This document shows positions 5,360 to 61,934 of a stretch of DNA of 64,000 nucleotides, piece by piece (positions within the stretch are counted from its first letter, which is position 1; every line of letters starts with the position of its first letter). The stretch spans positions 8,135 to 72,134 of the forward strand of contig JAFQGP010000115.1 in assembly GCA_017415485.1 (NCBI GenBank). Direction: 5' to 3'. The notes beneath the pieces were generated by a model that saw only the letters and a program-made list of their open reading frames with translations, ran no database searches and was not told the origin of the DNA. Origin of the DNA: Clostridia bacterium. Its GTDB lineage: Bacteria; Bacillota; Clostridia; Oscillospirales; CAG-272. The position numbers were made by a program, and so were the translations under genes.

Positions 5360-5375
5360 GCCACATATAACTATA

Positions 5376-5416: not shown

Positions 5417-5428
5417 CGGAGGCACAAT

Positions 5429-6595
5429 TTGATAAGTATACTTTCCAAAATCTTCATCAAGGACAGCTCGGATACCTCGTCGCCCGCGGTGAGAAGTGCT
5501 TACGGCACTCTTTGCGGCATAATGGGAATCATTCTGAACGTCCTGCTTTTCGCCATCAAGCTTCTTGCGGGCGTCATCAGCGGCTCGATCTCGATCATGG
5601 CTGATGCCTTCAACAATCTCACCGACGCGGGCTCCTCGGTCATCACCCTGATCGGCTTCCGTATGTCGGGTCAGAAGCCCGACCGTGACCATCCCTTCGG
5701 TCACGGAAGAATTGAATACATCTCGGGTCTGATCGTTTCAATGCTCATAATCCTTGTCGGCTTTGAGCTTGGCAAGACTTCTGTGGGCAAGATCATCACC
5801 CCCGAACCCGTCGAATTCAGCATCGTTGCCGTCATCATCCTTGTCTGCTCGATCGCCGTCAAGGCTTATATGGCTCTTTACAACTTCCGCATCGGCAAGA
5901 AGATCTCCTCCGCAGCTATGCGCGCAACGGCGCAGGACAGCCTCAACGATACGATCGCCACCGCTGCGGTACTTCTCTGCCTCATCATCTCGCGCCTTAC
6001 CTCGTTTGATATCGACGCCTACTGCGGCCTTGCGGTTTCGGGCTTCATTCTTTTCTCGGGTCTGCGTGCGGTCAAGGAGACGATGGATCCCCTTCTCGGC
6101 ACTCCCCCGAGCGAGGAATTCATCAAACAGATCGAAAAGATCGTTTATTCCTATGAGGGCGTCGAGGGTATACACGACCTGATCGTTCACGATTACGGCC
6201 CCGCGCGCACGATGATCTCGCTCCACGCAGAGGTTTCCTGTGATTCCGACCTGCTTGAAACACACGATATGATCGACAACATAGAAAAGGAATTGCGGGA
6301 GCATCTGAATTGCGATGCCGTCATTCATATGGACCCGATAGCGACAAACGACGAGCTGACCAACTCCGTGCGCGAAAAGATCGCATCTCTCGTCACCTGC
6401 ATCGACGCAGCTCTCACCATCCACGATTTCCGTATGGTCACGGGTCCCACGCACACAAACGTCATATTCGACGTTGTCATCCCCTATGACTTCAAAAGAA
6501 GCGACGAGGAGATCCGCGCAAATATAGAAACCATTGTAAAGTCGATCGATCAGAGCTACTTTTCGGTTATAAACATCGACAGATCGTATGTTTAA
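5429..6595 (+). CDS. Cation diffusion facilitator (CDF) family metal efflux transporter
   Basis: 388 aa. TTG start after a GGAGG RBS. Six TM segments plus a C-terminal cytoplasmic domain (HDLIVHDYGP, AVIHMDP). Confidence 0.85.
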   Translation: MISILSKIFIKDSSDTSSPAVRSAYGTLCGIMGIILNVLLFAIKLLAGVISGSISIMADAFNNLTDAGSSVITLIGFRMSGQKPDRDHPFGHGRIEYISGLIVSMLIILVGFELGKTSVGKIITPEPVEFSIVAVIILVCSIAVKAYMALYNFRIGKKISSAAMRATAQDSLNDTIATAAVLLCLIISRLTSFDIDAYCGLAVSGFILFSGLRAVKETMDPLLGTPPSEEFIKQIEKIVYSYEGVEGIHDLIVHDYGPARTMISLHAEVSCDSDLLETHDMIDNIEKELREHLNCDAVIHMDPIATNDELTNSVREKIASLVTCIDAALTIHDFRMVTGPTHTNVIFDVVIPYDFKRSDEEIRANIETIVKSIDQSYFSVINIDRSYV

Positions 6596-8097: not shown

Positions 8098-8329
8098 GTG
8101 GACAGTGGTTAGTGGACAGTGGACAGAAAGATGCGAATGATAATTTAATTTGTATATTTGCTATCCATTGTACTAACTAATAATTTAATAGAAAAAACTC
8201 GGATATTATGACGCGTTTGCATCAAAATATCCGAGTTTTTCTATCGCTTATCCAAACGAAGTTAACAGTGCACAAAACAAAATTACTTGTCGCAACTTTC
8301 TGTTCACTGTCCACTAACCACTGTTCCCT
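8098..8329. repeat. Palindromic intergenic element E1 (GTGGACA-heptamer arms, AT-rich core with a bidirectional terminator)
   Basis: The left arm GTGGACAGTGGTTAGTGGACAGTGGACAGAAAG (8098-8130) is the reverse complement of 8296-8328 with 2-3 mismatches. The element fills essentially the whole gap between two converging stop codons (8097 and 8332). Confidence 0.9.
8192..8241. terminator. Bidirectional rho-independent terminator inside E1
   Basis: AAAAACTCGGATATT ... AATATCCGAGTTTTT, with an A-tract and a T-tract on the two sides. Confidence 0.75.
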
Positions 8330-8331
8330 TA

Positions 8332-10614: not shown

Positions 10615-10657
10615 TTTGCTTTCCTTATTGTATACAAGAAGAATATTTTTCCAAAAA

Positions 10658-11016
10658 GCAAGTGCGAACAAAGCTTTCTGGGTGTCCCCTCATCACCCGC
10701 TGCGGCGGGAGCTTCTCCCAGGAGAAGCCTGGGGAACTGTGAGCTTCGTTTGATATTTCCAATTATTCATTTTTCATTATTCATTTGACCAATTTAGGTT
10801 TATAATGAATAATGAATAATTATTAATTGGCAAGAACACTTTTCTATACAATCGAAACCCAAGTAATATTAATTAACAAATTACATTCATTACTAATAAC
10901 GATAAGCTTCATTTAGATAATTCCAAATGAAGCTAACAGTGACCCCAAGGCTTCTCCTGGGAGAAGCTCCCGCCGCAGCGGGTGATGAGGGGACACCCAG
11001 AAGAATGTGTTAGCAC
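10658..11016. repeat. Long palindromic intergenic element E2 (arms about 95 bp, AT-rich core with a TTATTCA-word inner palindrome)
   Basis: The left arm GCAAGTGCGAACAAAGCTTTCTGGGTGTCCCCTCATCACCCGCTGCGGCGGGAGCTTCTCCCAGGAGAAGCC... recurs as its reverse complement at 10924-11016. The same arm family occurs at 32029 and 34919. Confidence 0.9.
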
Positions 11017-29321: not shown

Positions 29322-29412
29322 ATCAACCTCGCAAAAAATTTCGTTACACTATAATTATAATCTATTTTGCGACGAAATGTAACCCCTAAAAAGGTGGGAA
29401 ACTGGGAAATTA

Positions 29413-29713
29413 GTGGGCAGATCAGAGTGGACAGTGGACAGATCAGAGTGGACAGTGGACAGTGGACAGTGAACAGAAAGATGCGAATGATATTTTTATT
29501 TATCTTTTCTGTTAATTATTAAACAAATAATTTAATATATAAAACTCTCGGATATCTTGAATTCCTTCAAATATCCGAGAGTATTTTTTATTGCTTATTA
29601 CTCTTTAGTATAATACAAAAACTCTATGTTTTGCACAAAATTATTGCAGCAACCCGCATCTTTCTGTCCACTGTCCACTAACCACTGTCCACTCTTATCT
29701 GACCACTGTCCAC
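29413..29713. repeat. Palindromic intergenic element E3 (GTGGACA-heptamer arms, same family as E1)
   Basis: The left arm has (GTGGACA)n interspersed with GATCAGA and ends CAGAAAGATGCGAATGA as in E1. The right arm CTTTCTGTCCACTGTCCACTAACCACTGTCCAC is the exact reverse complement of the E1 left arm. Confidence 0.9.
29541..29589. terminator. Terminator hairpin in the E3 core
   Basis: ACTCTCGGATAT ... ATATCCGAGAGT followed by TTTTTT. It is homologous in position and sequence to the E1 core hairpin, with a TC/GA insertion pair in the stem. Confidence 0.7.
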
Positions 29714-29718
29714 TTTGC

Positions 29719-31984: not shown

Positions 31985-32028
31985 TTTATGTTCCTTTCTT
32001 TTGAGAAAAGTGTATTTTCTATAAAATC

Positions 32029-32423
32029 AGTGCGAACATAGACGCACTCGGTGTCCCCTCATCACCCGCTACGTCAGAACCCCAAAAACGCGCAAGCGCG
32101 TTTCCGGGAACCCGACGGCTGGAGCTTCTCCCAGGAGAAGCCTAAGGAAAGCTGTCGCTTTGAGCTAAATATTTCTCTGTTAGAGAAATGCTAAATTTTC
32201 GCTATGCAAAAGCTAAATACGCGCTTTGCGCGAGCTAAATATTCCGCCAAAGCGGAATGCAAAGGTAGAAATTTGCCAAGGCAAATTTCAATTTCATTTA
32301 ATTAATGATACGAATATTAGACAATACCAAACGAAGCTCACAGTAACCCCAGGCTTCTCCTGGAAGAAGCTCCCTCCGCAGAGGGTGATGAGGGGACACC
32401 CAGAAAGCTTTGTTCGCACTTGC
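32029..32423. repeat. Long palindromic intergenic element E4 (E2 arm family) with a central GCTAAAT hairpin train
   Basis: The arms GGTGTCCCCTCATCACCCGC...GGAGCTTCTCCCAGGAGAAGCC pair with their reverse complement at 32345-32423. The core at 32162-32292 has 5 hairpins separated by GCTAAAT. It is about 90% identical to E6. Confidence 0.9.
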
Positions 32424-32488
32424 TATTCTACTAAAATCGAAAATTTTCGCCTCGGCGAAAATTCACCTTAACTCTGCACTCTGAACTC

Positions 32489-33193
32489 TTAACTCTGCAC
32501 TATCTTTCGGATAATATGTCCCGCCATAATCAACCCTACCGCTCCCGGCACAAACGACAGGCTTCCCGGCGTATTTCTGCCGTTTTCGCTCTCAAGCCCT
32601 TGCGCCTTGATCGGCTCTTCGTCCGACCAGACGACGTCAAGCTTCTTGATACCTTTTTCCTTCATCTTCTTCCGCATAATTTTCGCAAGCGGGCAGACGC
32701 TCGTTTTGCTGATGTCGGATATGCGGAAACGCTCGGGATAAAGCTTGTTCCCCGCGCCCATCGAGGCAATAACGGGAACTCCCGCCGCATCTGCGCGGCA
32801 GATTAGCTCGACCTTTGCCGCGACGGTATCGACCGCGTCGGCAATGAAATCGAACTGCGAGAGGTCGATCTCGTCGGCATTTTCGGGCAGATAAAAGAGA
32901 TTGACGGGATGCACCTTACATTCGGGATTGATCGAAAGAATGCGCTCCGCCATAACCTCGGATTTTGGTCTGCCGACGGTATCCTGTGTCGCAATGATCT
33001 GGCGGTTTACGTTCGAGGTCGAAACCGTGTCGCCGTCAATGACTGTCAGCTCGCCGACCCCCGCGCGTGCCAAAGCCTCGCAAAGATGTCCGCCGACACC
33101 GCCAAGCCCGAAGACCGCAACGTGCGCCGATCTCAATCTGTTCACGCCCTCCTCGCCAAGCAAAGCCCGCGTGCGTGTATCGTCAAGTTGCAT
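32489..33193 (-). CDS. tcdA: tRNA threonylcarbamoyladenosine dehydratase (ThiF/HesA fold)
   Basis: 234 aa. Nucleotide-binding loop VFGLGGVGG, with TcdA/CsdL-like sequence. Confidence 0.85.
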   Translation of the reverse strand: MQLDDTRTRALLGEEGVNRLRSAHVAVFGLGGVGGHLCEALARAGVGELTVIDGDTVSTSNVNRQIIATQDTVGRPKSEVMAERILSINPECKVHPVNLFYLPENADEIDLSQFDFIADAVDTVAAKVELICRADAAGVPVIASMGAGNKLYPERFRISDISKTSVCPLAKIMRKKMKEKGIKKLDVVWSDEEPIKAQGLESENGRNTPGSLSFVPGAVGLIMAGHIIRKIVQS

Positions 33194-34899: not shown

Positions 34900-34918
34900 T
34901 AATTGACTTTATCATTTA

Positions 34919-35285
34919 GCAAGTGCGAACAAAGCTTTCTGGGTGTCCCCTCATCACCCGCTACGTCAGAACCCCAAAAACGCGCAAGCGCGTTTCCGGG
35001 AACCCGACGGCGGGAGCTTCTCCCAGGAGAAGCCTAGGGAGTCTAACGCCTTGAGCTAAATATTTCTCTCTTAGAGAAATGCTAAATTTTTGCTATGCAA
35101 AAGCTAAATTCGCGCTTTGCGCGAGCTAAATATTCCGCTAAAGCGGAATGCAAAGGTAGAAATTTGCCAATGCAAATTTCAATTTAATAAATAATTCGAA
35201 GATTCGAGAATTCCAAACGAAGCTCACAGTAACCCCAGGCTTCTCCTGGGAGAAGCTCCCGCCGCAGCGGGTGATGAGGGGACAC
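34919..35285. repeat. Long palindromic intergenic element E6 (near-copy of E4, same orientation)
   Basis: Same arms as E4, and the same GCTAAAT hairpin train at 35053-35183. Confidence 0.9.
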
Positions 35286-35352
35286 CGTTTGTGCCCAATG
35301 AACACAAGTGAATATTCACTTTAACGATAAAAATTAATCAAGGAGTCCCAAA

Positions 35353-37692: not shown

Positions 37693-38532
37693 ATGAGAGA
37701 TAATTACGACATTTTGAAGACCGAGGGCAGAAACCCTCGCACAATGGACATTGATAAGCTTTCCTCACTCGAAATGGTGCGCCTGATAAATCAGGAGAAC
37801 CGAGCCGTTGAGGACGGCATCGATGAGGCACTCCCCGAGATTGCGGCGGCTATTGATATGATAAGCGAAGCCATCGAGGCGGGGGGCCACGTCATTTATA
37901 TCGGCTGCGGCACTTCGGGCAGACTCGGCATCGTCGATGCCTCCGAATGCCCGCCCACCTTTGGCGTTGATTATGATCTTTTCCGCGGCGTTATCGCGGG
38001 CGGCAAGGAAGCCGTTTTCCGCGCGACCGAGAACGCCGAGGACAGCGAGGAAAAGGGTATGGCCGCCATCGAAGCCGACGGCGCGGCCAGAGGCGACGTT
38101 GTAGTCGGACTTTCCGCGTCGGGACGCGCGCCCTTCGTCATCGGCGCACTCAAAAAGGCAAAAGAACTCGGCTGCAAGACGATCTCCGTAACCTGCAACC
38201 CCGGCTCGCTTATGGAAAACTGCGCTGATATTGCCGTTTCGGTTTACGTCGGCCCCGAGGTAATTTCGGGCTCCACAAGACTCAAAGCCGGCACGGCACA
38301 GAAACTGATACTTAATATGTTCTCCACCTGCGCGATGATAAAGACGGGCAAAGTGCGCTCGAACCTCATGGTAAACGTCCGCCCGACCAACGAAAAGCTC
38401 GTTGAACGCGCGACACGCATCATTATGCAACTTTCCGACGCCGACAGAGAGACCGCCGAAAGACTGCTTGCGGAGTACGGCGAGGTGCCCGCGGCGCTGG
38501 ATGCGTATGAAAGTGCAAAAGGCAAAATGTAA
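37693..38532 (+). CDS. murQ: N-acetylmuramic acid 6-phosphate etherase
   Basis: Start at MRDNYDILKTEGRNPRTMDID. SIS domain GCGTSGRLG. The ATG lies 2 nt after the upstream stop. Confidence 0.9.
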   Translation: MRDNYDILKTEGRNPRTMDIDKLSSLEMVRLINQENRAVEDGIDEALPEIAAAIDMISEAIEAGGHVIYIGCGTSGRLGIVDASECPPTFGVDYDLFRGVIAGGKEAVFRATENAEDSEEKGMAAIEADGAARGDVVVGLSASGRAPFVIGALKKAKELGCKTISVTCNPGSLMENCADIAVSVYVGPEVISGSTRLKAGTAQKLILNMFSTCAMIKTGKVRSNLMVNVRPTNEKLVERATRIIMQLSDADRETAERLLAEYGEVPAALDAYESAKGKM

Positions 38533-38844
38533 AATGCAAAATGTAGGTGAATTTTCTCGCTTCGCTCAAAAATTTTCATTTGAATACAAGCAGCTTAAAG
38601 TTTTGATCGAACTTTTTCAAAAGTTCGCAGAGCTCGAGACAGCGTCTCGATTCAATGCAAAAGCTTCAGCTTTTGCCTCCGTGCTTCAAAATGGCGAAGC
38701 TTCGCTTCGACATTTTGGACAGAGTCAATACTTCCCGATTGTAGGGAAGTGCAGCTCTTGCGGTTTTCCGAAGGAAAATGGAGGCGTAAGCCGAGAAGCA
38801 AGAGTTGCAACTTGCCGTAGGCAAGTATTTGCGCTCTGTCACCC
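38521..38844. repeat. Structured repeat H2 (left module, copy A)
   Basis: It begins with (C/T)AAAATG x3 across the murQ stop. Positions 38549-38844 are homologous to 42879-43101, and the module ends GCGCTCTGTCACCC. It carries extra hairpins inserted at 38755-38830. Confidence 0.85.
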
Positions 38845-38904: not shown

Positions 38905-39114
38905 ATGAAAAAGAACCTTATCTGGAACATTATCTTAATAATCGGCATCATCCCTTTCATACTTCCGTTCGCTTTCGGCATATACAAAATTTCGATCGAA
39001 AGCTGGACGATGTTCGATTGGCTCGTTATGTACTCGTACATTTTTTGGCCCACTTATATCGTCGGCGCGGTAGTTATCGCGATTTCGATCATTGGAAGAT
39101 TCATAAAAAAGTGA
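38905..39114 (+). CDS. Small hydrophobic membrane protein (69 aa), the AT-rich cargo of element copy A
   Basis: MKKNLIWNIILIIGIIPFILPFAF..., with 2-3 TM segments. AT-rich codon usage unlike its neighbours. The stop lies inside the first hairpin of H3. Confidence 0.5.
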   Translation: MKKNLIWNIILIIGIIPFILPFAFGIYKISIESWTMFDWLVMYSYIFWPTYIVGAVVIAISIIGRFIKK

Positions 39115-39275
39115 AGGAGCAAAACCTCCCCGCGGGGAGGTTTTACTCCTTCCAAACAGCCTGCGGGGCGCAGTCTGTTTGAAGCGCAAGGGAATTTCGC
39201 CCTCTGCGGAGGGCGACTTAAGGCTCTGCCTTAAGAAACCGCAACCTTTTGAAAAAGGTTGACCAAAACTTTGAT
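39111..39275. repeat. Structured repeat H3 (right module, copy A)
   Basis: GTGAAGGAGCAAAACCTCCCCGCGGGGAGGTTTTACTCCTTC... contains five hairpins and is homologous to 44837-45001 with compensatory stem changes. Confidence 0.9.
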
Positions 39276-39295
39276 CTTTTTTGTTAGTTGGTAAA

Positions 39296-40695: not shown

Positions 40696-40842
40696 ATGAA
40701 GAGAATTCGTACTATCAATACTCGTGACCTCAAGGCTTCCGTTAAGAACGGCGGATGCGGCGAGTGCCAGACCTCCTGCCAGTCCGCTTGCAAGACCTCT
40801 TGCGGTGTTGCTAACCAGGCTTGCGAGAAAAAGGCAAAGTAA
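40696..40842 (+). CDS. scfA: SCIFF (six-cysteines-in-forty-five) ranthipeptide precursor
   Basis: 48 aa: MKRIRTINTRDLKASVKNGGCGECQTSCQSACKTSCGVANQACEKKAK. AGGTGG RBS. It was embedded in a longer track ORF. Confidence 0.92.
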   Translation: MKRIRTINTRDLKASVKNGGCGECQTSCQSACKTSCGVANQACEKKAK

Positions 40843-40844
40843 GT

Positions 40845-40879
40845 AAAATAAGCCGCCGCAAATAGCGGCGGCTTATTTT
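40845..40879 (+). terminator. Terminator/attenuator hairpin immediately after scfA
   Basis: AAAATAAGCCGCCG-caaata-GCGGCGGCTTATTTT. Confidence 0.75.
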
Positions 40880-40880
40880 G

Positions 40881-41090
40881 CGATATAGATCCTTGCGGAT
40901 CTGTGATATACGCAGAGCGTGCGATATACCTTCGGCACGATATGCCCCTTCGGGGCGTGATTTCACGTTCGCCTTCGGCGAACATATCGTATCGCGCTTT
41001 GCACGATATATCGTACTGTTTGCCAAAGGCAAACAGTATATCGTATGAGCATAGCGAATATATCGTGTTTACTAAATAAACGAGGTTAAC
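40881..41090. repeat. Hairpin-train element H4 (word CGATAT / ATATCG, overall palindromic)
   Basis: About 9 GC hairpins (gatccttgcggatc, gccccttcggggc, gttcgccttcggcgaac, actgtttgccaaaggcaaacagt ...). The spacer is (G)CGATAT(A) in the left half and ATATCGT in the right half. The centre is cgtgatttcacg. Confidence 0.85.
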
Positions 41091-41092
41091 CG

Positions 41093-41464
41093 ATGAATAA
41101 TATCACTATACGCGAATTAGCAGTAGAATTGACCGTTGAAATTACGCAAATATGCGATAATATCAAAGGAAGAAGCGTTTTCATAAATCAAATTTTGAGA
41201 TCCTGTTCTTCCATCGGAGCAAATTCCGCAGAAGCCAAATATGCACAAAGTTCCGCAGACTTCATTCACAAATTGGAAATCTCACTCAAAGAATGCTATG
41301 AAACCGATTATTGGCTTGAAATCCTTTATAAAACCAATTCAATGGATAAAGAAACATATATAAGATTGTTAAATAAATGCGGTTCTATTCGCAGAAAGCT
41401 TATTGCCTCCATAACAACGGCAAAAGCAAATTCAGAACAGCAATCCGGAGGTACAACAAAATGA
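41093..41464 (+). CDS. Four-helix-bundle protein (23S rRNA intervening-sequence protein family, PF05635/TIGR02436)
   Basis: 123 aa. Contains ...QILRSCSSIGANSAEAKYAQSSADFIHKLEISLKECYETDYWLEIL. AT-rich. Its stop overlaps the scfB ATG (ATGA). Confidence 0.85.
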   Translation: MNNITIRELAVELTVEITQICDNIKGRSVFINQILRSCSSIGANSAEAKYAQSSADFIHKLEISLKECYETDYWLEILYKTNSMDKETYIRLLNKCGSIRRKLIASITTAKANSEQQSGGTTK

Positions 41465-42843
41465 TCCATTCCTATAAACTTGGCGGTTACAATATCGTCC
41501 TTGACGTCGGCTCGGGCGCGGTGCACGCGGTTGATGATCTTGCCTATGACGTCATAAATCTCTACGAAACCAAGTCGGCAGACGAGATCGTCTCGGTCTG
41601 CCTTGAAAAATTCGCCTCCGAAGGTATCACCGAAGAGGACATCCGCGACACGATCTCCGACGTTGAAGAGCTCAAACAGAGCGGCAAACTTTACGCCGAG
41701 GATATCTATGCGCCCCTCGTCGGCAAGCTCAAGAACAATTCCAACATCGTCAAGGCACTCTGCCTGCACGTCGCGCACACCTGCAACCTCAACTGCGAAT
41801 ACTGCTTCGCGGCACAGGGTCGATTCCACGGCGAACGCGCCCTGATGTCATTTGAGGTCGGCAAGCGCGCGCTTGATTTCCTTGTTGAAAACTCGGGAAC
41901 CCGCCACAATCTTGAAGTCGACTTCTTCGGCGGCGAGCCGCTGATGAACTGGCAGGTCGTCAAGGATCTCGTTGCCTACGCGCGCTCGATCGAGGAAGCC
42001 GCAGGCAAGCATTTCCGCTTCACGCTGACGACAAACGGCGTGCTGATCGACGACGACGTCATTGATTTTGCCAACAAAGAGATGGACAACGTCGTTCTCT
42101 CGCTCGACGGCAGACGCCACGTGCACGACAACCTCCGCAAAACTGTGAACGGTCAGGGCAGCTATGACCTGATCCTTCCGAAGTTCAAGGAATTCGTCAC
42201 CCGCCGCGGCGACAAGGGCTACTATATGCGCGGTACATACACCAAGTTCAACACCGATTTCTGCTCCGACATCATCCACATGGCTGACGAAGGCTTTACC
42301 GAGCTTTCGATGGAGCCCGTAGTCTGCCCTCCCGGCGACCCCTACGCACTCGGCGACGAGGATCTGCCCGTGCTTTACGATCAGTATGAAAAGCTCGCCT
42401 TTGAGATGATGGACCGCAAGAAGCGCGGCAAGCCGATCACCTTCTATCACTATATGCTCGACCTTGAGGGCGGCCCCTGCATCTACAAGAGAATTTCCGG
42501 CTGCGGCTCGGGCACCGAGTATATGGCTGTCACCCCTTGGGGCGACCTTTACCCCTGCCATCAGTTCGTCGGCGACGAAAAATACCTCCTCGGCGACATC
42601 TGGAAGGGCGTAACGAACGACGCCATCCGCGACGAATTCCGCTCCTGCTCGGCATATTCGAGAGAGGAATGCCGCGACTGCTGGGCCAGACTCTACTGCT
42701 CCGGCGGCTGCGCCGCGAACTCCTACCACGCAACCGGAAGCGTAAACGGCGTTTATGAGTACGGATGTAAGCTGTTCAAGAAACGAATCGAGTGCGCGAT
42801 CATGCTGAAGGTCGCGGAATCCCTCGAAAACGAAGAAGAATAA
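41461..42843 (+). CDS. scfB: SCIFF radical SAM/SPASM maturase
   Basis: Start at MIHSYKLGGYNIVLDVGSGAVHAVDD. CNLNCEYC radical-SAM motif and a Cys-rich SPASM C-terminus (CRDCWARLYCSGGCAANS). Confidence 0.92.
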   Translation: MIHSYKLGGYNIVLDVGSGAVHAVDDLAYDVINLYETKSADEIVSVCLEKFASEGITEEDIRDTISDVEELKQSGKLYAEDIYAPLVGKLKNNSNIVKALCLHVAHTCNLNCEYCFAAQGRFHGERALMSFEVGKRALDFLVENSGTRHNLEVDFFGGEPLMNWQVVKDLVAYARSIEEAAGKHFRFTLTTNGVLIDDDVIDFANKEMDNVVLSLDGRRHVHDNLRKTVNGQGSYDLILPKFKEFVTRRGDKGYYMRGTYTKFNTDFCSDIIHMADEGFTELSMEPVVCPPGDPYALGDEDLPVLYDQYEKLAFEMMDRKKRGKPITFYHYMLDLEGGPCIYKRISGCGSGTEYMAVTPWGDLYPCHQFVGDEKYLLGDIWKGVTNDAIRDEFRSCSAYSREECRDCWARLYCSGGCAANSYHATGSVNGVYEYGCKLFKKRIECAIMLKVAESLENEEE

Positions 42844-43101
42844 GTTGCTAGTTGCTAGACGCTAGTTGCTAGTTGAAGGTTAATTTCCGCCCTGATCGGG
42901 CGGAAATTTTCATTCTAATTAAAGAGCAGGAAAGTTTTCGTCCACCTTTTTCAAAAGGTGGCGGAGCACGAGGCAGAGCCTCGGACTAATGCGAAAGCTT
43001 CAGCTTTCGCTTCTGCGCTTCAAAATGACGAAGCTCTGCTTCGGCATTTTGGACAGAGTCAACACTTCCCGAATGTAGGGAAGTGTTGCGCTCTGTCACC
43101 C
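42844..43101. repeat. Structured repeat H5 (left module, copy B)
   Basis: It begins with GTTGCTA-type heptamers x5 directly after the scfB stop, continues with sequence homologous to 38549-38844, and ends GCGCTCTGTCACCC. Confidence 0.9.
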
Positions 43102-43121
43102 CTTATTATTTAATATTCAAA

Positions 43122-43164
43122 GGCACACTTTTCGGTAAAAGCCGATTGGTGTGCCAACTTTTTT
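43122..43164 (+). terminator. Rho-independent terminator (plus-strand T-tail)
   Basis: GGCACAC...GTGTGCC followed by TTTTTT. Confidence 0.65.
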
Positions 43165-43489
43165 ATTCAAGTGAATTCAGATATACTTCAAGCAGTTGCT
43201 TAGCAGTTTCGCGATTCTTCTCAGGGAGTAAATCAACTCGTTCGGCAAGTGTTGCGCCGATTGGCACAATTATCTGATCTTCAACAAAAATATCGTTCGG
43301 AGTAATGCCCAACGCCTCGCATATTCTAAGCACACTCTCGATGCGCATATTAACGCTTCCTCTTTCGATATCAGCGTAAGTGCGATCAGAAAGTCCCGCC
43401 TCCTCCGCAACCTGTGCCTGCGTAAGCCCTTTTTGTTTTCTTATGGCATACAATTTATTTCCTATTTCCATCAAATCAAAAACAAGCAT
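43163..43489 (-). CDS. Small XRE-family HTH repressor-like protein
   Basis: 108 aa. HTH is LYAIRKQKGLTQAQVAEEAGLSDRTYADIERG. AT-rich. It is divergent from a consensus promoter. Confidence 0.8.
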   Translation of the reverse strand: MLVFDLMEIGNKLYAIRKQKGLTQAQVAEEAGLSDRTYADIERGSVNMRIESVLRICEALGITPNDIFVEDQIIVPIGATLAERVDLLPEKNRETAKQLLEVYLNSLE

Positions 43490-43537
43490 CTTAATTCCCC
43501 TTTTTATTATATATAGGAATTATAGCACCATTTTATC

Positions 43538-43566
43538 TTGACAAAAAGGAGTTTCAGTGCTATAAT
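43538..43566 (+). promoter_or_regulatory. Perfect consensus sigma-70 promoter with a flanking inverted repeat (candidate operator)
   Basis: TTGACA (43538-43543), N17, TATAAT (43561-43566). The inverted repeat TTATAGCAC (43519-43527) / GTGCTATAA (43556-43564) overlaps the -10 element. Confidence 0.7.
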
Positions 43567-43608
43567 ATAGGAAGTAAGATTCTTATTTGTTTTCAAGGAG
43601 GTATTACA

Positions 43609-43803
43609 ATGAAAAAATATGTTCTTAATGAATCTACAGGTACGCTACACATTCTCGGTTATTGTACACATTCGACACATAAGTTTGACAATGCAATTAC
43701 ATTCGAAACAGAACAAGAAGCATACAAATTTGCTGGCAAGCATATTAAGCTTTGCAAGCTATGTGAAAGAAAAAAAGAAGCAATCTTAAAAGAACAAAAC
43801 TAA
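43609..43803 (+). CDS. Small Cys/His-containing protein (64 aa), possible zinc-binding
   Basis: AGGAGG RBS. Contains LHILGYCTHSTH ... CKLCERKK. AT-rich. I recognise no family. Confidence 0.5.
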   Translation: MKKYVLNESTGTLHILGYCTHSTHKFDNAITFETEQEAYKFAGKHIKLCKLCERKKEAILKEQN

Positions 43804-43831
43804 TTATGCATTAAAGAAAGGAATATAATCC

Positions 43832-44563
43832 ATGAAAAAATTTATTGCAATATTATTAGCGGTAATTATGTGTTTTTCCCTAGTTTCATGCGGAAAGAAA
43901 GTGGCTTTTGAATTAACACAAAATGCATTTTTTGAGATAAGCAAGTCTGTAGATATTTTGAAGCAGATCAGCAATGACATTATTAGCGCGTGGACGATAG
44001 GTATTTATGATGAATCAACATTAAAACACTATGGTGATGGATTTGATTGGTTATGTGAAAACGTTTCATTATCAAGAGATGATATGCTTGATGGATTAGC
44101 ATATTATAAAAGTCTTGGTATTCAACCCGAATACGTAGAAATTTTATGTGATCCGGAATTAGGATTATATAATGATTATTATGAATACCATAAAGAAGCA
44201 GTACGAAAACTTTATGATATGTATTTCTATACCAGTTATGAGGAAACAGGTATATTAAATGTTTACGATAAAGTGTTCACAGGTTGTGTAATGTTGGTCG
44301 TATACTCTTACGAGGCGAACGGAAAGCTCAGCGAAATCGAACAATCTCTTACATCCGCTGAAACAAAAATCAAAGAATTGAGCAATAAGCATTCAAACTA
44401 TGAGCATTACGAAAACATAAAAGAATATTATTCTACTGCTAGGACTATGTATAATTTCTGCAAATTGCCCACTGGAACATTAGAGCAAGCTAAGAGCAAC
44501 ATAAACGATTATAAAAACACAGCAGATTCGTGTTATAACAGTATGTATTACTTTTTCCAGTAG
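43832..44563 (+). CDS. Lipoprotein of unknown function (243 aa)
   Basis: Lipobox FSLVSCG. AT-rich, helical, Tyr/Glu-rich. Confidence 0.6.
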   Translation: MKKFIAILLAVIMCFSLVSCGKKVAFELTQNAFFEISKSVDILKQISNDIISAWTIGIYDESTLKHYGDGFDWLCENVSLSRDDMLDGLAYYKSLGIQPEYVEILCDPELGLYNDYYEYHKEAVRKLYDMYFYTSYEETGILNVYDKVFTGCVMLVVYSYEANGKLSEIEQSLTSAETKIKELSNKHSNYEHYENIKEYYSTARTMYNFCKLPTGTLEQAKSNINDYKNTADSCYNSMYYFFQ

Positions 44564-44599
44564 ACACTGCAACAAAATTTTCATTCTATGCAGTAAAGT

Positions 44600-44836
44600 T
44601 GACGATATATCAAGAGCCCTCCCGCTTGCGGGAGGGTTGGGAGGGGAGTCAGCGGCGCGCGAAATTTGAGCACCAAAACCAAACTCAAAGCGAAATATAA
44701 TAAAAATGTGAAAATCCGCCGCGGCGGATTTTTCCTTTACGTTCCGCGGTGCGGAACATATCGCATCGCGAAGCGATATATCGTATCCGCAGGATATATC
44801 GCGCCGAAGGCATATCGTGCGCCCTGCGGGCGCAGG
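44600..44836. repeat. Hairpin-train element H6a (ATATCG word)
   Basis: ccctcccgcttgcgggaggg and aaatccgccgcggcggattt, followed by gttccgcggtgcggaac-ATATCGC-atcgcgaagcgat-ATATCGT-atccgcaggat-ATATCGC-gccgaaggc-ATATCGT-gcgccctgcgggcgc. Confidence 0.85.
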
Positions 44837-45001
44837 GTGAAGGAGCAAAAATCTCCCGCAAGGGGAGATTTTACTCCTTCCGAACCGTCGACGGGGCGTC
44901 GCCGGTTCGAAGCACAAGGAAATTTCGCGCTCTGCGGAGCGCGACTTAAGGCTCTGCCTTAAGAAACCGCAAACTTTTGAAAAAGTTTGATCAAAACTTT
45001 T
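44837..45001. repeat. Structured repeat H6b (right module, copy B)
   Basis: Collinear with 39111-39275. Linkers are identical (TTACTCCTTCC, CTTAAGGCTCTGCCTTAAGAAACCGCAA) and the stems differ by paired substitutions. Confidence 0.9.
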
Positions 45002-45024
45002 CCGCTGATATAGTTAAATTGTTC

Positions 45025-55341: not shown

Positions 55342-57057
55342 TCAGTTCGTCTTCTCTCCGTAAACGAGGATCTCGCGGGTATTGATGGTGTTGTATTTGT
55401 TTTCTTCGTCATTTCTGCCGACAATGACGCCAACACGGATATACTGTCCCTCGACACCGCCCATATCAAACAGGCAGGTGACCTTCGAGGTATTGCCGTT
55501 CCAGGGGTCCTTCGGCGAGGTTCCGCAGTTGACAAGATCGGTTCCTGTCACCTGATTCCAGCAAGCCGTAGGCACCTGGGTCCAATTCACTCCGTCATCG
55601 CTGACATAGACAGCAGCAACTCCGGGGAATCCCTCAAGGCTTCCCGAAGCGAATCCCATTGCATCAAACTTGTGCTTCGAGCCGAAATTGAGGGTGATAA
55701 GGCAGGTATAGGGAGAATTTGCATCGACCTCGCCCTTGATGTTATAGGTCTTATCGTCAAAGACGAAGTTTGCCATAAAGGAGTTGCCCCAGTGGCCGTT
55801 GACAAGGTTTTCGACAGCTGTGGTGTAGCCCTTTGCGGAGGAATCCATTTTTTCGATACCTATTACCGAAACACCGTAGCCGATATCGGCAATGTCAGCC
55901 TTCTGCGCGTCGGTAAGTCCCGTGGTCGAATACTCGGTCGATGCGATCGCATTCTTGGTGCCGAGAATACCCGAGAAGCTCTTGCCGTTCGGGTATGTTC
56001 CGCCCTCGAGGACGGAGATGAGCTTCGACTTCGGGAAAGCGGTCAGGTTCTTCATAGCCGAAGCATCGACCGCATAGGTCTTCTCAACGAATTCAACGCC
56101 GACAGACGAGGTCTTGTACTTTTCGGGGATCGCGGGAGTCTCCCAAACAGCCTTGCGAGCCGCTTCTTTGAGAACAGCCGCCGCTTCATCGGTAAGATTT
56201 GCATTGTAATCGACCGTGGTGGGATCGATACCCGTGATCTTTGCAAAGATCGTCATCGCCGCGAGATAGCTTCCCGTAGCGTTGGGGTGGGTCAGGTCGG
56301 AATCATAGAGGTTGATGTTCTTGTTATTGTTATAAACGTCAAAGAAAGCAAGACCCGCATATGCAATGTCGATACCGAGCTCGGCGCCGATAGCCTCGTA
56401 TGCCGCGCTGATCATCCAGGTCATACTCTCGTTGGTCCAGCCGTTTTCCTTGAGAACGCTGTGTCCCTCTTTTCTGCCCCAGGTGCCGTAGAGAATGGGG
56501 GTCGCGCCGTCTGCAATCACCTTTGCGGCAAGGTTGCGCACGCCGGTGTAGAACTTATCGGGGTACAGCGCGGGGCAGGTGCTCTGCTCCTGCAGAACGA
56601 TGTAATCGTAATCGCGGAGCTTAAGCGCGGAGTCAACCTTCGCGCCGACCTCGTCGGTCGACTTTGCGGAATCGATCAGATACCATCCGCCCTTGGTGAT
56701 ACGGGTGACGGTGGCATCATAGCCCGCCGCCTTCAGTATCTTCGCAAAGATCTGCTCGGGCATATCGTTATAATGAGTATAGCTGTTTCCGATAAAGAGG
56801 AAATTGTATTTCTTGCTCTTGTCGAGGACCGTGGTTTCGGGCTCGGCGGTGGTCTCGGGAGCGGGCTCGGTCGCCTCGGTCTCGGGAGCGGGCTCGGTCG
56901 CCTCGGTCTCGGGAGCGGCAGTGGTTACTTCAATTTCGGGTGCTTTGGTGGTTTCCTCGGGGGCTGTGGTGACTTCACCTTCGCCCGTGCAGGCAACACC
57001 CGCAAAAAGCATTGAGAAAAGCAAAAGCATTGCGATCAATCTCTTTTTCATTGTCAT
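55342..57057 (-). CDS. Lipoprotein with a DUF4886 (SGNH-like) domain and a C-terminal discoidin-like domain
   Basis: Lipobox FAGVACT. T/E/P-rich linker with the EATEPAPET repeat. FLFIGNSYTHYNDMP is DUF4886-like. Confidence 0.6.
   Translation of the reverse strand: MTMKKRLIAMLLLFSMLFAGVACTGEGEVTTAPEETTKAPEIEVTTAAPETEATEPAPETEATEPAPETTAEPETTVLDKSKKYNFLFIGNSYTHYNDMPEQIFAKILKAAGYDATVTRITKGGWYLIDSAKSTDEVGAKVDSALKLRDYDYIVLQEQSTCPALYPDKFYTGVRNLAAKVIADGATPILYGTWGRKEGHSVLKENGWTNESMTWMISAAYEAIGAELGIDIAYAGLAFFDVYNNNKNINLYDSDLTHPNATGSYLAAMTIFAKITGIDPTTVDYNANLTDEAAAVLKEAARKAVWETPAIPEKYKTSSVGVEFVEKTYAVDASAMKNLTAFPKSKLISVLEGGTYPNGKSFSGILGTKNAIASTEYSTTGLTDAQKADIADIGYGVSVIGIEKMDSSAKGYTTAVENLVNGHWGNSFMANFVFDDKTYNIKGEVDANSPYTCLITLNFGSKHKFDAMGFASGSLEGFPGVAAVYVSDDGVNWTQVPTACWNQVTGTDLVNCGTSPKDPWNGNTSKVTCLFDMGGVEGQYIRVGVIVGRNDEENKYNTINTREILVYGEKTN
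56851..56918. repeat. 27-nt tandem repeat (2.5 copies) encoding the linker of the lipoprotein
   Basis: GGTCTCGGGAGCGGGCTCGGTCGCCTC x2 plus a partial copy; on the minus strand it encodes (EATEPAPET)n. Confidence 0.9.
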
Positions 57058-58326: not shown

Positions 58327-58352
58327 AATGTTAGTCGATTATTAATTTATAA

Positions 58353-59987
58353 TCAGTTTTCTCTTCTCTTTGCAACAACTGCAACTCCGCAAAGGGAGAT
58401 AACAGCAACAACAGCGAAGATGAGAGCGGAGTCGCCGGTGGGAACGGGATCTGCAGGAACTTCGGGCTCGGTGATAACGGGATCAAGCTTGCCCTCGGGA
58501 TCCGAGATAATGAGTCCCTTGTAGATGTTGATATCCTTGTACTCTGCAACAAGGCTCTTGTTGTGGAGGTAGAAGCCTACACAAACCTGGAAACCGGACT
58601 CGTGAGGATAAGGAGTGCCATCGGTAGCCTTGGTGGTGTTGGTCATATCGATAACGTTGTAGGAGATCCACTTGCCTTCGGTGTTGAGGTAGTAAATGGT
58701 AGCCTGGTAACCGTGCATCTCAACGCGGAAGGTTGCGTAACCGTCTGCATCGTGGCCGAGGTCTTCAACAGGAACATACTCCTTGCCGGGAGTGTTGATG
58801 TTTGTGATCTTGGTGGAACCGTGCTCGGTTGCGAAGGAACCGGTCTGGAAGTTACCGTAGATATTGAAGGAGTTGTTGAAGGGATGGAGGGTAGGAACTG
58901 CGAAGCAGAAACCGGTGTTCTTTGCGCCGGTCTTTACCTTCCACTCAGTGGTGTATCTGGTCTCGGAGTTGATCTCAAGGCCTTCAACGATAGAACCGTA
59001 GTATGTACCCTTTTCTGCGGAGCCGTCCTGCTCGATCTTGATGTAGTCCTTATCAGCGGGATCAAGAGTGATGTTGAACTTTTCGCCGTTAGCAGCAAGG
59101 AAACGTGCGGAGAAGCCGGTATCCTTTCTCGAGAAATCGGGGGTAAAGAGAATGTCGCCGGTCTTAGCCTTATCGTAACCGGTTACGGAAGCACCCTCAA
59201 CGTAGTAGTCGGGGTAAGTGGGGTTCTTAACGGTGTTGCCTTCGTAAACAACAGCATCCTTGATGGTGATAGCTGCGCCCGGGTTGTAGAGGTATGCGGA
59301 GAGACCGAAGTTGGGAGCAACCTCAAGAAGACCGGTGTTGAATGCATCATACTCGTCGATGTATACGTTGTTGATGAATACCTTAACGTTTGCACCGGTA
59401 ACTACGAAATCGATGTCAACGAAGCCCTCAGCGTCAACTGCGGAGAGGTACTTTGCGTCGGTAACGTAAGCATCGCCATAGAAAATGGAACCGATGGACT
59501 TACCGCCTGCACCGTAGCTCATTACGTGACGGATGTTGGGACAACCGTAGTAGCCAACAAGAGATTTGTAACCAAGGTCAAGAAGATACTGAGCCTCGGT
59601 GTTGGTGGGCATGTTGATGAACACACCTGCGTTGCCGGAAGCGAGCTTACCGTCGGTATCGGTGTAAGCAACTGCCATCTTCATAGAGAAGGTGTAGTTC
59701 TTGCCCTCGCCGTAGGTGAGACCCTTGATTGCGCCGCCCCAGAATGCACGGCCTGCAGCAGTACCTGCATAGGTAACGGTTGCGGACTTGCCGTCATCGG
59801 AAACGGTTGTTGCGAGAGTTCCGTCGCCCTTGAGGAGACAGAAATCTGCGGGAGCGTACTTGTCGTCGCCCTTGAAGTTGACTTCATAGAGAACGTCGCC
59901 TTCCTTAGCGGAAGCGGTGATTCCCATAGCAGCAACAAGCGCGAGGATCATTGTGAGAGAAAGAATTGCGCTGAGGATCTTTTTCAT
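58353..59987 (-). CDS. Secreted surface protein (beta-sandwich/lectin-like, function unknown) with a PTGDSAL/TM/KRREN sorting signal
   Basis: Signal peptide MKKILSAILSLTMILALVAAMGITASA. Ends DPVPTGDSALIFAVVAVISLCGVAVVAKRREN. It is a paralogue of the next gene. Confidence 0.8.
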   Translation of the reverse strand: MKKILSAILSLTMILALVAAMGITASAKEGDVLYEVNFKGDDKYAPADFCLLKGDGTLATTVSDDGKSATVTYAGTAAGRAFWGGAIKGLTYGEGKNYTFSMKMAVAYTDTDGKLASGNAGVFINMPTNTEAQYLLDLGYKSLVGYYGCPNIRHVMSYGAGGKSIGSIFYGDAYVTDAKYLSAVDAEGFVDIDFVVTGANVKVFINNVYIDEYDAFNTGLLEVAPNFGLSAYLYNPGAAITIKDAVVYEGNTVKNPTYPDYYVEGASVTGYDKAKTGDILFTPDFSRKDTGFSARFLAANGEKFNITLDPADKDYIKIEQDGSAEKGTYYGSIVEGLEINSETRYTTEWKVKTGAKNTGFCFAVPTLHPFNNSFNIYGNFQTGSFATEHGSTKITNINTPGKEYVPVEDLGHDADGYATFRVEMHGYQATIYYLNTEGKWISYNVIDMTNTTKATDGTPYPHESGFQVCVGFYLHNKSLVAEYKDINIYKGLIISDPEGKLDPVITEPEVPADPVPTGDSALIFAVVAVISLCGVAVVAKRREN

Positions 59988-60037
59988 AATCAGATTCCTT
60001 TCTTTATTTTTCGGTCATACCGAATTGATACAATATA

Positions 60038-60066
60038 ATAATATCATTTTTATTCTTATTTGTCAA
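60038..60066 (-). promoter_or_regulatory. Promoter of 58353-59987 (followed by a conserved leader hairpin at 60010-60024)
   Basis: On the minus strand: TTGACA, N17, TATTAT. The leader is TGTATCAATTCGGtatgaCCGAAA. Confidence 0.55.
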
Positions 60067-60086
60067 TAGTAAATTACATTTTTCTA

Positions 60087-60116
60087 TAAAAAGACCGCCT
60101 CACGAGGAGGCAGTCT
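60087..60116 (-). terminator. Terminator after 60137-61855
   Basis: On the minus strand: AGACTGCCTC-ctcg-tGAGGCGGTCT followed by TTTT. Confidence 0.65.
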
Positions 60117-60136
60117 TGATTATGTTGATGAATTTA

Positions 60137-61855
60137 TCAGTTTTCTCTTCTCTTTGCGATGGTTGCAACGCCGAGAACGGAGATGATAGCAACAACTGCG
60201 AAGATGAGAGCGGAGTCACCGGTGGGAACGGGATCAGCGGGCTCTGTTACTTCGGGCTCGGTCTCAACGGGAGGAACATAGTTCGCGATATCGGTGAGAG
60301 TACCCTTGTAAAGAGCAACGTCCTTCATACCGAATGTAGCCATATCGTGGTAGATGTAAAGGCCGCATGCAACCTGAGGAGCAGCTGCAAATTCAGCAGC
60401 GGTGCCGTGGTAGGACTCGAAGAGTACCCACGCGCCGGTAGCATCCTTGTAGTATACGTTCCAAGTGTAACCGTCAACGGTTACAGCCATATCAGCATAG
60501 CCCTCAGCGTCGAACGCGATGTTCTTCTCGAGGTTAGCAAACTTGGTGTAGGAGGTGGTCTTTACGGTCTCGTGACCCTTGATCTTGGTGCCGCTGATAG
60601 CGATAACCATATCGGAATCTGCGCTGCCGTTGAAGTTGCCGTAGAAGTTGTAGAGCTGTGCCCAGTTGTACTTCATATTGGTCTCATCAAGATTGAAGAG
60701 AATGCCGCCGCGGAGCTCGTTGGACTTAACCTTGTAGGTGAAGGTGTAAACGGTGTCAGCGGTGTACTCAAGAGAACCGATAGCGCCGCCCCACCAGGTA
60801 GCACCCTGGCCTGCATCCTTCATAGCTGCATCGGTGGGCTTTTCAAAGTCGATCTTGGAGCCGTCATCGGAAACGGTGATGTTAAGGTCGGTACCTGCAA
60901 GATAGAGCATCTTGGGGTCGAAATCGGTGCCGTTCTTGAAGTTTACGTCGGTAAGCTTTGCGCCAAGGCCTGCCTTAGCATAAGCATCCATAGTGAGCGA
61001 CTTTGCGTTGAGAGCCATTGCGCCGGACCAGTCTTCCTTTACTGCGCCTTCGCGGAGTGCGGGATAGGTGAAGCCCTTAGCGGTGTAGATGTTGCCCTCG
61101 TATACAACAGCATCCTTGAAGGTTACGGAACCTGCGTTGTAAACGTAGAAAATGAGAGCGAGATCATCGTAGTTGTTTGCGAAGGGGATATAGTCCTCGT
61201 CAAAGAACTCGCCGTTGATGAATACACGGTAAACGAAGCCGTCAACTTCGATGGAAACCTTGCAGAAACCGTCTGCGTCGGGAGTGTAAAGACCGCCAAC
61301 ATAGTTGGAGCCGTCACTTACGTAAAGACCGTAGTCCTTGCTGCCCGCGCCACGAGAAAGGGTGTTCTTGGGAGTACCGTTCCAGCCCTCGGGAGTGCCG
61401 TAGTAGCCTCTGAGAGCGTTCATGGTATCGGTGTACTTGCTGTTGTTGGGAGTAATTGCTGCCCAATCGCCTTCAACGACGTCCTTGTTGCCATTGATGT
61501 ATACACCGAAGTTCTGCATTGCGTCCTTGCCTTCGATGGAGTTGTCAGCGAGAACTTCAACAGTGTACTTCTTGCCTTCGCCGATCTTGAGACCGTCGAG
61601 GATGTCGCCGTAGAAGTATCTCTTGGACTTGGTGACAACGGTGATGGTTGCTGCAGAGCCGTCTTCGGAAACTTCTGCTGTAACACCGTCTGCCTTGCCG
61701 TTTGTAGCAAACATATTGAACGAATACTTGTCGTCGTTCTTGAAGTTGATCTTACGAAGAACGTCGCCTTCCTTAGCGGAAGCGGAGATTCCCATAGCCG
61801 CAACGAGCGAGAGAATCATAACAAGCGAGAGAAGTGCGCTGAAAATTCTTTTCAT
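60137..61855 (-). CDS. Secreted surface protein, paralogue of 58353-59987, with a PTGDSAL/TM/KRREN sorting signal
   Basis: Start at MKRIFSALLSLVMILSLVAAMGISASA (61855). Ends DPVPTGDSALIFAVVAIISVLGVATIAKRREN. Confidence 0.8.
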   Translation of the reverse strand: MKRIFSALLSLVMILSLVAAMGISASAKEGDVLRKINFKNDDKYSFNMFATNGKADGVTAEVSEDGSAATITVVTKSKRYFYGDILDGLKIGEGKKYTVEVLADNSIEGKDAMQNFGVYINGNKDVVEGDWAAITPNNSKYTDTMNALRGYYGTPEGWNGTPKNTLSRGAGSKDYGLYVSDGSNYVGGLYTPDADGFCKVSIEVDGFVYRVFINGEFFDEDYIPFANNYDDLALIFYVYNAGSVTFKDAVVYEGNIYTAKGFTYPALREGAVKEDWSGAMALNAKSLTMDAYAKAGLGAKLTDVNFKNGTDFDPKMLYLAGTDLNITVSDDGSKIDFEKPTDAAMKDAGQGATWWGGAIGSLEYTADTVYTFTYKVKSNELRGGILFNLDETNMKYNWAQLYNFYGNFNGSADSDMVIAISGTKIKGHETVKTTSYTKFANLEKNIAFDAEGYADMAVTVDGYTWNVYYKDATGAWVLFESYHGTAAEFAAAPQVACGLYIYHDMATFGMKDVALYKGTLTDIANYVPPVETEPEVTEPADPVPTGDSALIFAVVAIISVLGVATIAKRREN

Positions 61856-61905
61856 AATTTTCTTTCCTTTCAAAAATTTCGGCTTTGCCGAATTGATACA
61901 TAATA

Positions 61906-61934
61906 ATGATACCACTTTTGTGCGAATTTGTCAA
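61906..61934 (-). promoter_or_regulatory. Promoter of 60137-61855 (followed by a conserved leader hairpin at 61878-61892)
   Basis: On the minus strand: TTGACA, N17, TATCAT. The leader is TGTATCAATTCGGcaaagCCGAAA. Confidence 0.55.

Follow-up and report, generated by a model that had tools for sequence, protein, structure and literature searches.

BOX elements of streptococci, bacterial interspersed mosaic elements (BIMEs) and bacterial miniature inverted-repeat transposable elements, or MITEs, are the closest analogues that we would propose for a repeat of perfect hairpins in a 64,000-nucleotide stretch of DNA from an uncultured Clostridia bacterium (assembly GCA_017415485.1, contig JAFQGP010000115.1; hereafter the window). 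The left module of this repeat occurs twice in the window, as copy A (38549–38844) and copy B (42879–43101), and was first described in an earlier note made from the letters alone. We read the left module as one arm of a non-coding, multi-copy, fold-back palindromic mosaic repeat that is maintained at the DNA level, with any effect on transcripts secondary, and we give this reading a probability of roughly 0.6. Our search of the literature on nested and fold-back bacterial repeats and on the function of Gut-1 RNA found no description of this repeat, and we treat the three systems as analogues rather than as families to which it belongs.

The BOX elements of S. pneumoniae and S. suis (boxA-boxB(n)-boxC, with boxE/boxF ends; PMC3049150) are, like our repeat, modular intergenic composites of Firmicutes with two differing end modules, optional internal modules and a strain-variable length. 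They too have a predicted tight fold, occur in untranslated regions (UTRs) and in operons, and are found nested in other repeats (PMC3049150). No sequence similarity is expected and none was noticed. Each end of our repeat consists of 5–6 separate perfect hairpins. Its inserted unit, XY, is nested at many different positions, in either orientation, whereas BOX has its internal modules in tandem at a single position. For BOX, target duplications and a candidate cognate insertion sequence have been reported (PMC3049150); neither was found for the hairpin repeat.

Repetitive extragenic palindromic (REP) sequences and BIMEs (PMC2817692) share with our repeat the palindromic units, the two-orientation mosaics, the species-specific, dynamic and extragenic occurrence, and the presence of both single units and inverted pairs. 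The REP sequences, however, form one family of short (20–40 nt) imperfect palindromes that share a conserved head motif and number in the hundreds. In our repeat at least seven unrelated palindromes follow one another in a fixed order, which lies outside that single-palindrome definition, and the window open reading frames (ORFs) tested include no RAYT gene. MITEs (Correia/NEMIS, ERIC, RUP, Nezha; PMC2229807, PMC10969869) are small, non-coding, multi-copy and highly base-paired, have inverted terminal similarity, are present or absent at orthologous sites and insert into transcribed regions. Our repeat likewise is small, non-coding and multi-copy, carries terminal inverted repeats and varies in presence between orthologous sites. 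Unlike MITEs, it is not AT-rich, has long, hairpin-rich and internally asymmetric ends, and in some copies holds cargo genes between them; no short target duplication was found at its outer edges.

Two further comparisons concern a neighbouring motif and a mutational process. Gut-1 RNA (RF01706), found only in gut metagenomes and with no known function (PMC2864571), is present in the same genome (window 3492–3565, 75.6 bits). Its simple hairpins are spaced by a constant 7-mer, GUGAAAU, as in other arrays of the window, whereas the left-module hairpins are fixed in sequence and order and their linkers are not a repeated 7-mer. Neither left module matched the Gut-1 model (threshold 50 bits). Template switching (quasi-palindrome mutagenesis) can create or repair perfect stems and make multi-base paired changes in one event (PMC8794818). 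It would account for the perfect stems, the multi-base compensation and the a-a'-a arm triplications of our repeat, but it describes how mutations arise and defines no family of elements, and it leaves the spread to unrelated loci unexplained.

Copies of the left module and covariation of their stems

Both left modules are chains of short near-perfect hairpins in the order H1, H2, H3, H4, two-tier H5 and a clamp around H7 (Table 1), and they are 79% identical across 189 nt. They fold far better than shuffled sequences and about equally well on the two strands, with z of -10.3 and -9.65 in copy B and of -5.2 and -6.5 in copy A, as chains of perfect Watson-Crick palindromes would. The earlier note had pointed out that homologous stems of the two copies differ by paired changes, and all four differences that it quoted are indeed present, as is every other piece of sequence that it cited, at the coordinates it gave. 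An exact-pattern scan of one genome per species returned 22 further copies in nine metagenome-assembled genomes (MAGs) of Eubacteriales/Clostridia, so that the absence of further copies, by which the note would have been refuted, does not hold. The MAGs are fragmented and gave 2–5 exact-pattern matches each; blastn-short added diverged copies in the same loci. Two of the record titles name dairy-cattle colon and goat colon. Searches of plasmid and phage records with the module by BLAST matched nothing, and viral contigs gave 0 matches to the insert pattern. A loose left-module pattern matched 106 viral-contig loci, which we took as chance (an 18-base pattern with a variable gap) and left uninspected and unused.

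From the window and the nine MAGs 25 copies were aligned in all; an alignment of 24 copies, with the large insert excised, served to score 53 stem pairs. Across the alignment 98.1% of stem cells are paired, and sliding the 3′ partner by 1–3 columns lowers this to 34–46%. Changes on both sides were observed in 19 of the 53 pairs, and 0 of 500 shuffles attained any of five covariation measures. RNAalifold independently yielded the same hairpins. Compensation extends to two copies beyond the reach of the search pattern, namely L004b (CAAAATC/GATTTTG and clamp GGACTTAAT/ATTAAGTCC) and L134 (clamp GACGTAAGTG/CACTTACGTC). Thus, the covariation of the helices is solid. A 4-bp long-range helix GAGY/GCUU around H3 and H4, also proposed by RNAalifold (columns 51–54 with 107–110), was rejected as unsupported, with no double-sided change. 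It corresponds to about 42964–42967 with 43017–43020 in copy B and may be a chance pairing; it contains a G·U in 24 of 24 copies and hence would be strand-specific.

Turnover at orthologous sites and nesting of the XY unit

The junction between murQ and a decarboxylase gene, occupied by copy A in the window, was traced through MurQ homologues, and the repeat is present at some of the orthologous sites and absent from others (Table 1). The right module is missing at the site in L001 and collapsed in L014. At another orthologous pair, L013 has a gene between its modules and L005 has none. Sequence identity was equally uneven. The orthologues L004 and L007 are 93.5–97.6% identical in their flanks and 83.6% in the core, with stems paired in both, while in L002/L006 and L003/L022 the core is 99–100% identical and the flanks only 71–96%. 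Such all-or-nothing identity fits block exchange of hairpin alleles among paralogues better than gradual evolution, the hairpin variants acting as discrete alleles that are shuffled among paralogues. In L143 an IS30-type transposase gene (HTH_38 + rve) lies at 4715–5755, just 3′ of the decarboxylase gene, and the murQ junction is empty.

In another reading the hairpins are domesticated and kept because they serve the host as RNA or DNA structures that work in either orientation, by protecting mRNA 3′ ends, as an operon insulator or partial terminator, or as a site that a nucleoid protein or an RNA-binding protein would recognise. In its favour, conservation is higher in stems than in linkers, certain copies are more conserved than their flanks, and copies stand at gene ends and within operons. 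Effects of this kind have also been reported for REP/BIME and BOX (PMC2817692, PMC3049150), and H1 of copy B is weakly terminator-like. However, the close relatives L139, L143, L138 and L140 lack modules at the same junction, one orthologous site has radically different content across 83–95% MurQ identity, and no consistent T-tract follows the module on its 3′ side. We therefore regard a host function as possible but unlikely. The left module as such was also considered as an intrinsic terminator and rejected, as only H1 of copy B has any terminator character and the clamp is not followed by a T-tract.

The earlier note had seen about 75 nt of additional hairpins inside the clamp of copy A. 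The block measures exactly 77 nt, sits between H7 and the clamp 3′ arm and forms hairpins of its own. It is one instance of a unit of 76–79 nt, which we call XY, in which part X is a multi-hairpin of ~55 nt (GCNNCTCTG...CAGAGNNGC) and part Y a hairpin of ~22 nt (AAYTTGCC-gna-GGCAARTATTT). XY occurs at no fewer than eight sites, in either orientation and in left and right modules alike (L001, L008, L009, L019, L020, L129–L131, L133, L134 and L137, besides copy A). A metagenome scan with the XY core gave nine matches, of which six are genuine; the other three, L132, L135 and L136, are chance matches in high-GC DNA.

Within the left module all five XY sites are hairpin tips or the clamp multiloop, and small indels are found in loops and linkers only. 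To this extent the note was right to suggest that the element grows by hairpins inserted into loops. What lacks support is that one RNA grows new hairpins. The extra DNA is always the same XY unit, and XY also lies beyond the outer end of the module, in right modules and outside hairpins. Moreover, two of the five in-module sites, those of L001 and L020, have a host stem with a damaged 5′ arm, and the helix that would enclose the insert is lost. Since it occurs at many sites, including ones outside hairpins, and in both orientations, XY is a separate brick in its own right. The proposed growth is partly supported: the gain of hairpins at loops is real, and it reflects the nesting of a recurring DNA brick, not the growth of an RNA.

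The same nesting could be read as a process of hairpin accretion, in which bricks would arise at, or home to, hairpin tips and the GATC-centred palindrome through a hairpin-specific enzyme or an RNA-binding factor. The nested fold-backs, flanked by period-7 (NAG-N4) and 7-mer-spaced arrays of which Gut-1 would be one example, would then not be products of ordinary transposition. We hold this to be distinctly unlikely.

Strand, ends and the case for DNA-level maintenance

Covariation of this strength would also be expected if the module were a strand-specific structured non-coding RNA or a cis-regulatory RNA such as a 3′-UTR element, with helices under RNA selection and accretion in loops, similar to the expansion segments of ribosomal RNA. 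An RNA under selection should tolerate G·U but not A·C. Among 19 non-Watson-Crick cells, G·T and A·C each occurred eight times, without strand bias, and a hand tally with copies re-oriented by the neighbouring gene gave about 4 G·U and 6 A·C. Relative to verified neighbouring genes the orientation is mixed, with 8 independent loci co-oriented with the upstream gene and 5 of the 13 reversed (beside a serpin gene, argD, ptsI and the GFO gene, and at the L002/L006 locus). Unpaired columns have a major-allele frequency of 0.81 and paired columns one of 0.94; stems more conserved than unpaired positions are the opposite of what most functional RNAs show. The left modules match no Rfam family at the gathering score, and the overlap at E<=10 is noise only (HOXB13-AS1, E = 8.4). 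The missing G·U excess, the mixed orientation, the less conserved unpaired columns and the blank Rfam search argue against taking the covariation as the mark of an RNA gene.

Some features remain on the side of an RNA. Indels and most nested insertions spare the middle of stems, every full-length copy that has the period-7 array and H1 comes after a co-oriented gene, XY has conserved GNRA and GNA loops, and the murQ–decarboxylase site lies in an operon, so that its module is probably transcribed. Against these stand, in addition to the tests above, the inverted left module that substitutes for a right one in L010, the occurrence of the same insert in either orientation and the two nested insertions that disrupt the host stem. 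We consider a dedicated RNA highly improbable.

The ends of the repeat provide a further line of evidence. The complete order is period-7 array, H1, linker, palindrome P and H2-H3-H4-H5-clamp(H7) in the left module, then optional cargo, then R1–R3, H3′, H2′ and P in the right module; in L144 and L129 a mirror-image H1 is present on the right side. P (AAAGTTTGATCAAACTTT, ~18 nt, consensus AAAGTTT(T)GATC(R)AA(A)CTTT) lies at both outer edges and is solitary in L144. When reverse-complemented, the end of the right module can be aligned to the first part of the left one (H2-H3) over 27–58 nt with scores of 39–57 (shuffle maximum 24), and the two thus share an inverted terminal similarity. In L010 an inverted left module sits exactly at the position of the copy B right module, flanked by the same hairpin array and GFO promoter. 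The inverted ends, P at both edges and this replacement together indicate a single fold-back design, of which the left and the right module are halves that can replace each other. As an ~18-nt palindromic direct repeat, P could be a target or a recombination substrate. At a module edge we also observed an arm triplication a-a'-a, AAAGTTTTG-at-CAAACTTTT-tc-AAAAGTTTG, which looks like a template-switch product.

Left and right modules form same-orientation pairs 30 nt to 1.7 kb apart. In L005, L011 and L015 the spacing is 30–45 nt and the joined pair of ~350 nt holds no ORF. The modules are separated by a 69-aa ORF in copy A and L017, by one gene in L013, L016 and L018, and in copy B by 1.7 kb of cargo, low in GC and containing an Xre regulator; the right module of copy B is directly 5′ of the promoter of a GFO/IDH/MocA gene. 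The 69-aa ORF of copy A is conserved in L001, L014 and L017 and matched no Pfam family. The low-GC island at 43100–44570 (0.37–0.40 against ~0.53 in the surrounding window) contains the divergently transcribed Xre-type helix-turn-helix (HTH) gene and two ORFs with no Pfam match, one of them lipoprotein-like; Xre HTH genes also adjoin the copies L003, L016, L020 and L140.

A cargo-carrying mobile cassette, transposon-like or similar to a mobile insertion cassette and mobilised in trans, would explain these pairs, their accessory-type cargo (Xre HTH regulators, small membrane proteins, lipoprotein-like proteins), its low GC content in copy B, the mutually inverted outer ends and the absence of the entire left-ORF-right block from L139 and L143, but it is very doubtful, as the adjacent modules of L005 and the gene between those of its orthologue L013 mean that cargo moved independently of the ends, L001 keeps left module and ORF with the right module missing, left modules are also solitary and inverted, and Pfam found no transposase among 29 ORFs. 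Integron gene cassettes with attC sites were considered as well, given the small ORFs between structured repeats; the ORFs scanned include no integrase, although no search aimed at attC core sites was made.

We therefore return to a repeat maintained as DNA. The paired changes, the lack of a G·U excess and the mixed orientation point to DNA-level maintenance. The family is lineage-specific: its perfect DNA palindromes, or 'hairpin bricks', are nested and combined in mosaics at many unrelated intergenic sites of one uncultured gut Clostridia clade, and it behaves as selfish or recombining DNA rather than a dedicated RNA gene. Its turnover is fast: whole bricks come and go, paralogous copies exchange hairpin alleles, and XY becomes nested, mostly at hairpin tips. 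Template switching within palindromes during replication may keep the stems perfect, and gene conversion between copies may shuffle the alleles. Spread would require either a putative enzyme acting in trans or recombination at P, the palindrome common to both modules. Several copies are situated in operons and are therefore probably transcribed. By analogy with REP and BOX, their hairpins would probably act as orientation-independent stem-loops affecting mRNA decay or read-through, which would be a by-product and not the reason for which the family exists.

Several observations weigh against this interpretation. No transposase, integrase or RAYT-like gene was found by Pfam among the 29 ORFs around copies and in low-GC parts of the window, where the matches were confined to housekeeping genes, Xre HTH, LytTR, serpin and the like. 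We found no convincing target-site duplication at the left and right outer edges or at the XY junctions, where flanks are diverged and ends fuzzy. The mismatch tally is small (16 informative cells). All left modules with period-7 array and H1, at five independent loci, are co-oriented with the upstream gene, which hints at a constraint on the transcript. In certain orthologous copies conservation is higher than in the flanks, as in L002 and L006 (core 100%, flanks 71–96%). Finally, XY keeps its GNRA (GTAA/GTGA) and GNA loops in a fixed orientation.

These results carry a caution for the discovery of RNA motifs in metagenomes, as a repeated element can show strong covariation of its helices without being an RNA gene. 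They also describe a repeat family not reported before in uncultured Clostridia of animal-gut samples (cattle and goat colon by the record titles), which adds about 0.2–2 kb of structured DNA, at times with accessory genes, to otherwise compact operon junctions. Its nesting at hairpin tips, together with period-7 and Gut-1-like arrays, offers a concrete system for the origin and spread of palindromic repeats.

Table 1. Parts of the hairpin repeat in the window, state of the murQ–decarboxylase junction in relatives (MurQ identity to the window MurQ in brackets) and sites of the XY unit
Feature	Position	Strand	Remarks
Period-7 tandem array, AAAATGY-type	38510–38547	+	Tandem Repeats Finder; overlaps murQ stop codon, 5′ of copy A
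Copy A, H1	38549–38577		optional outer hairpin; pairs only in its outer stem, AATTTT/AAAATT
Copy A, outer palindrome P	38597–38615		AAAGTTTTGATCGAACTTT; left edge
Copy A, core	38608–38751		H2, H3, H4, H5, clamp 5′ arm, H7
Copy A, stem	38608–38627		CGAACTTTT/AAAAGTTCG
Copy A, stem	38634–38650		TCGAGAC/GTCTCGA
Copy A, stem	38657–38676		GCAAAAGC/GCTTTTGC
Copy A, clamp arms	38718–38724 with 38834–38840		3′ arm CTCTGTC; enclose H7 and 77 extra nt
Copy A, XY insert block	38752–38828		77 nt, nested in clamp multiloop
Copy A, 69-aa membrane-like ORF	38905–39114	+	cargo between left and right modules
Copy A, right module	39111–39276		outer end is inverted left-module H2/H3 end; P at 39255
Period-7 tandem array, TAG-N4	42841–42879	+	unit AGTTGCT; from SCIFF maturase stop codon, 5′ of copy B
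Copy B, H1	42880–42911		AATTTCCGCCC/GGGCGGAAATT; weakly terminator-like
Copy B, core	42931–43097		P-like edge, H2, H3, H4, H5, clamp and H7; no insert
Copy B, H2	42942–42961		CCACCTTTTTCAAAAGGTGG
Copy B, H3	42969–42983		CGAGGC-aga-GCCTCG
Copy B, H4	42991–43010		GCGAAAGC-ttca-GCTTTCGC
Copy B, H5	43021–43051		
Copy B, clamp and H7	43052–43097		GACAGAG..CACTTCCC-gaatgta-GGGAAGTG..CTCTGTC
Copy B, cargo, including a terminator	43122–44836		between left and right modules
Copy B cargo, Xre-type HTH gene	43163–43489	- (HTH gene)	
Copy B cargo, two ORFs	43609–43803, 43832–44563		no assigned function; GC 0.37–0.40
Copy B cargo, hairpin array	about 44590–44835		GATAT-type spacer
Copy B, right module	44837–45009		ends in P (44982) and CCGCTGAT
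Junction in L139 (75%)			murQ and decarboxylase gene 8 nt apart; no modules
Junction in L143 (84%)			murQ and decarboxylase gene overlap; no modules
Junction in L138 (81%) and L140 (70%)			plain terminator
Junction in L142 (83%)			7-mer array, H1, hairpin array with constant ATATCACT spacer
Junction in L144 (90%)			mirror-symmetric: 7-mer array, H1 and a linker, then AAAGTTTGATCAAACTTT alone, then the linker mirrored, H1 inverted and a hairpin array with 7-mer spacing
Junction in window, L017, L014, L001, L009			with left module; right module complete, collapsed or missing; XY position varies
XY in clamp multiloop			copy A, L008, L137
XY in H4 5′ arm and loop			L001; Y alone in L130
XY in H3			L020, L130; reverse orientation
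Y alone in H5 loop			L130
XY in H1			L009
XY beyond module outer end			L019, L134; reverse orientation
XY inside right modules			L131, L133
XY in one further context			L129

Other arrays and repeats in the window and its relatives

Period-7 arrays of 3–9 units come immediately 3′ of gene ends, on the 5′ side of H1. Besides the two in Table 1 the window has arrays at 8097–8126, 10762–10820, 29412–29476, 29664–29714 and 32470–32501, and others are present in L004, L007, L008, L014, L017, L018, L142 and L144. The unit varies even between orthologous loci (AAAATGY, AGTGRAA, AGGGCAG, AGTAAAA), and the loci orthologous to copy A have different 7-mers with the period unchanged. The period and the leading AG(T), i.e. 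NAG-N4, are mostly retained. We take these arrays to resemble the HutP site, (UAG-N4)x3.

A second type consists of differing small perfect hairpins with one constant 7-mer spacer. Such arrays are found at 35040–35150, 40878–41070, 44740–44830 and 3492–3565 in the window, and at 3395–3490 of L142 and 3470–3580 of L144, with the spacers GCTAAAT, GATATAT-like, GTGAAAT, ATATCACT and NTTAACT. A sub-threshold Gut-1 match of 40.7 bits covers 40878–40968. Gut-1 may be a single case of a kind of array that is general in the clade, and this orphan motif may belong to the same phenomenon as the hairpin repeat.

Two other fold-back repeats were noticed. A cassette of (AGTGGAC)n, an A/T-rich stretch with a central terminator-like hairpin, and (GTCCACT)n, with 7-mer repeats as its inverted ends, has two copies at two gene junctions (8086–8330 and 29406–29714). 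A three-copy family (10657–10997, 32026–32400 and 34918–35286; D2, D4, D7, D11, D14) has a long outer inverted repeat, GTGTCCCCTCATCACCCGC...GGGAGCTTCTCCCAGGAGAAGCC, around a 7-mer-spaced hairpin array and is another nested fold-back element. At 40697–42843, a hairpin array and an inserted 23S-rRNA-IVP/four-helix-bundle ORF (41093–41464), which overlaps the annotated maturase start, come between the SCIFF precursor and its radical-SAM maturase; the same spacer in L139 holds one hairpin only. A perfect 27-nt tandem repeat of 2.5 copies lies inside an ORF region at 56851–56918. Two repeat pairs at 58352–61934 (D1 and D8), 77–86% identical and ~1.8 kb apart, probably derive from paralogous adjacent genes.

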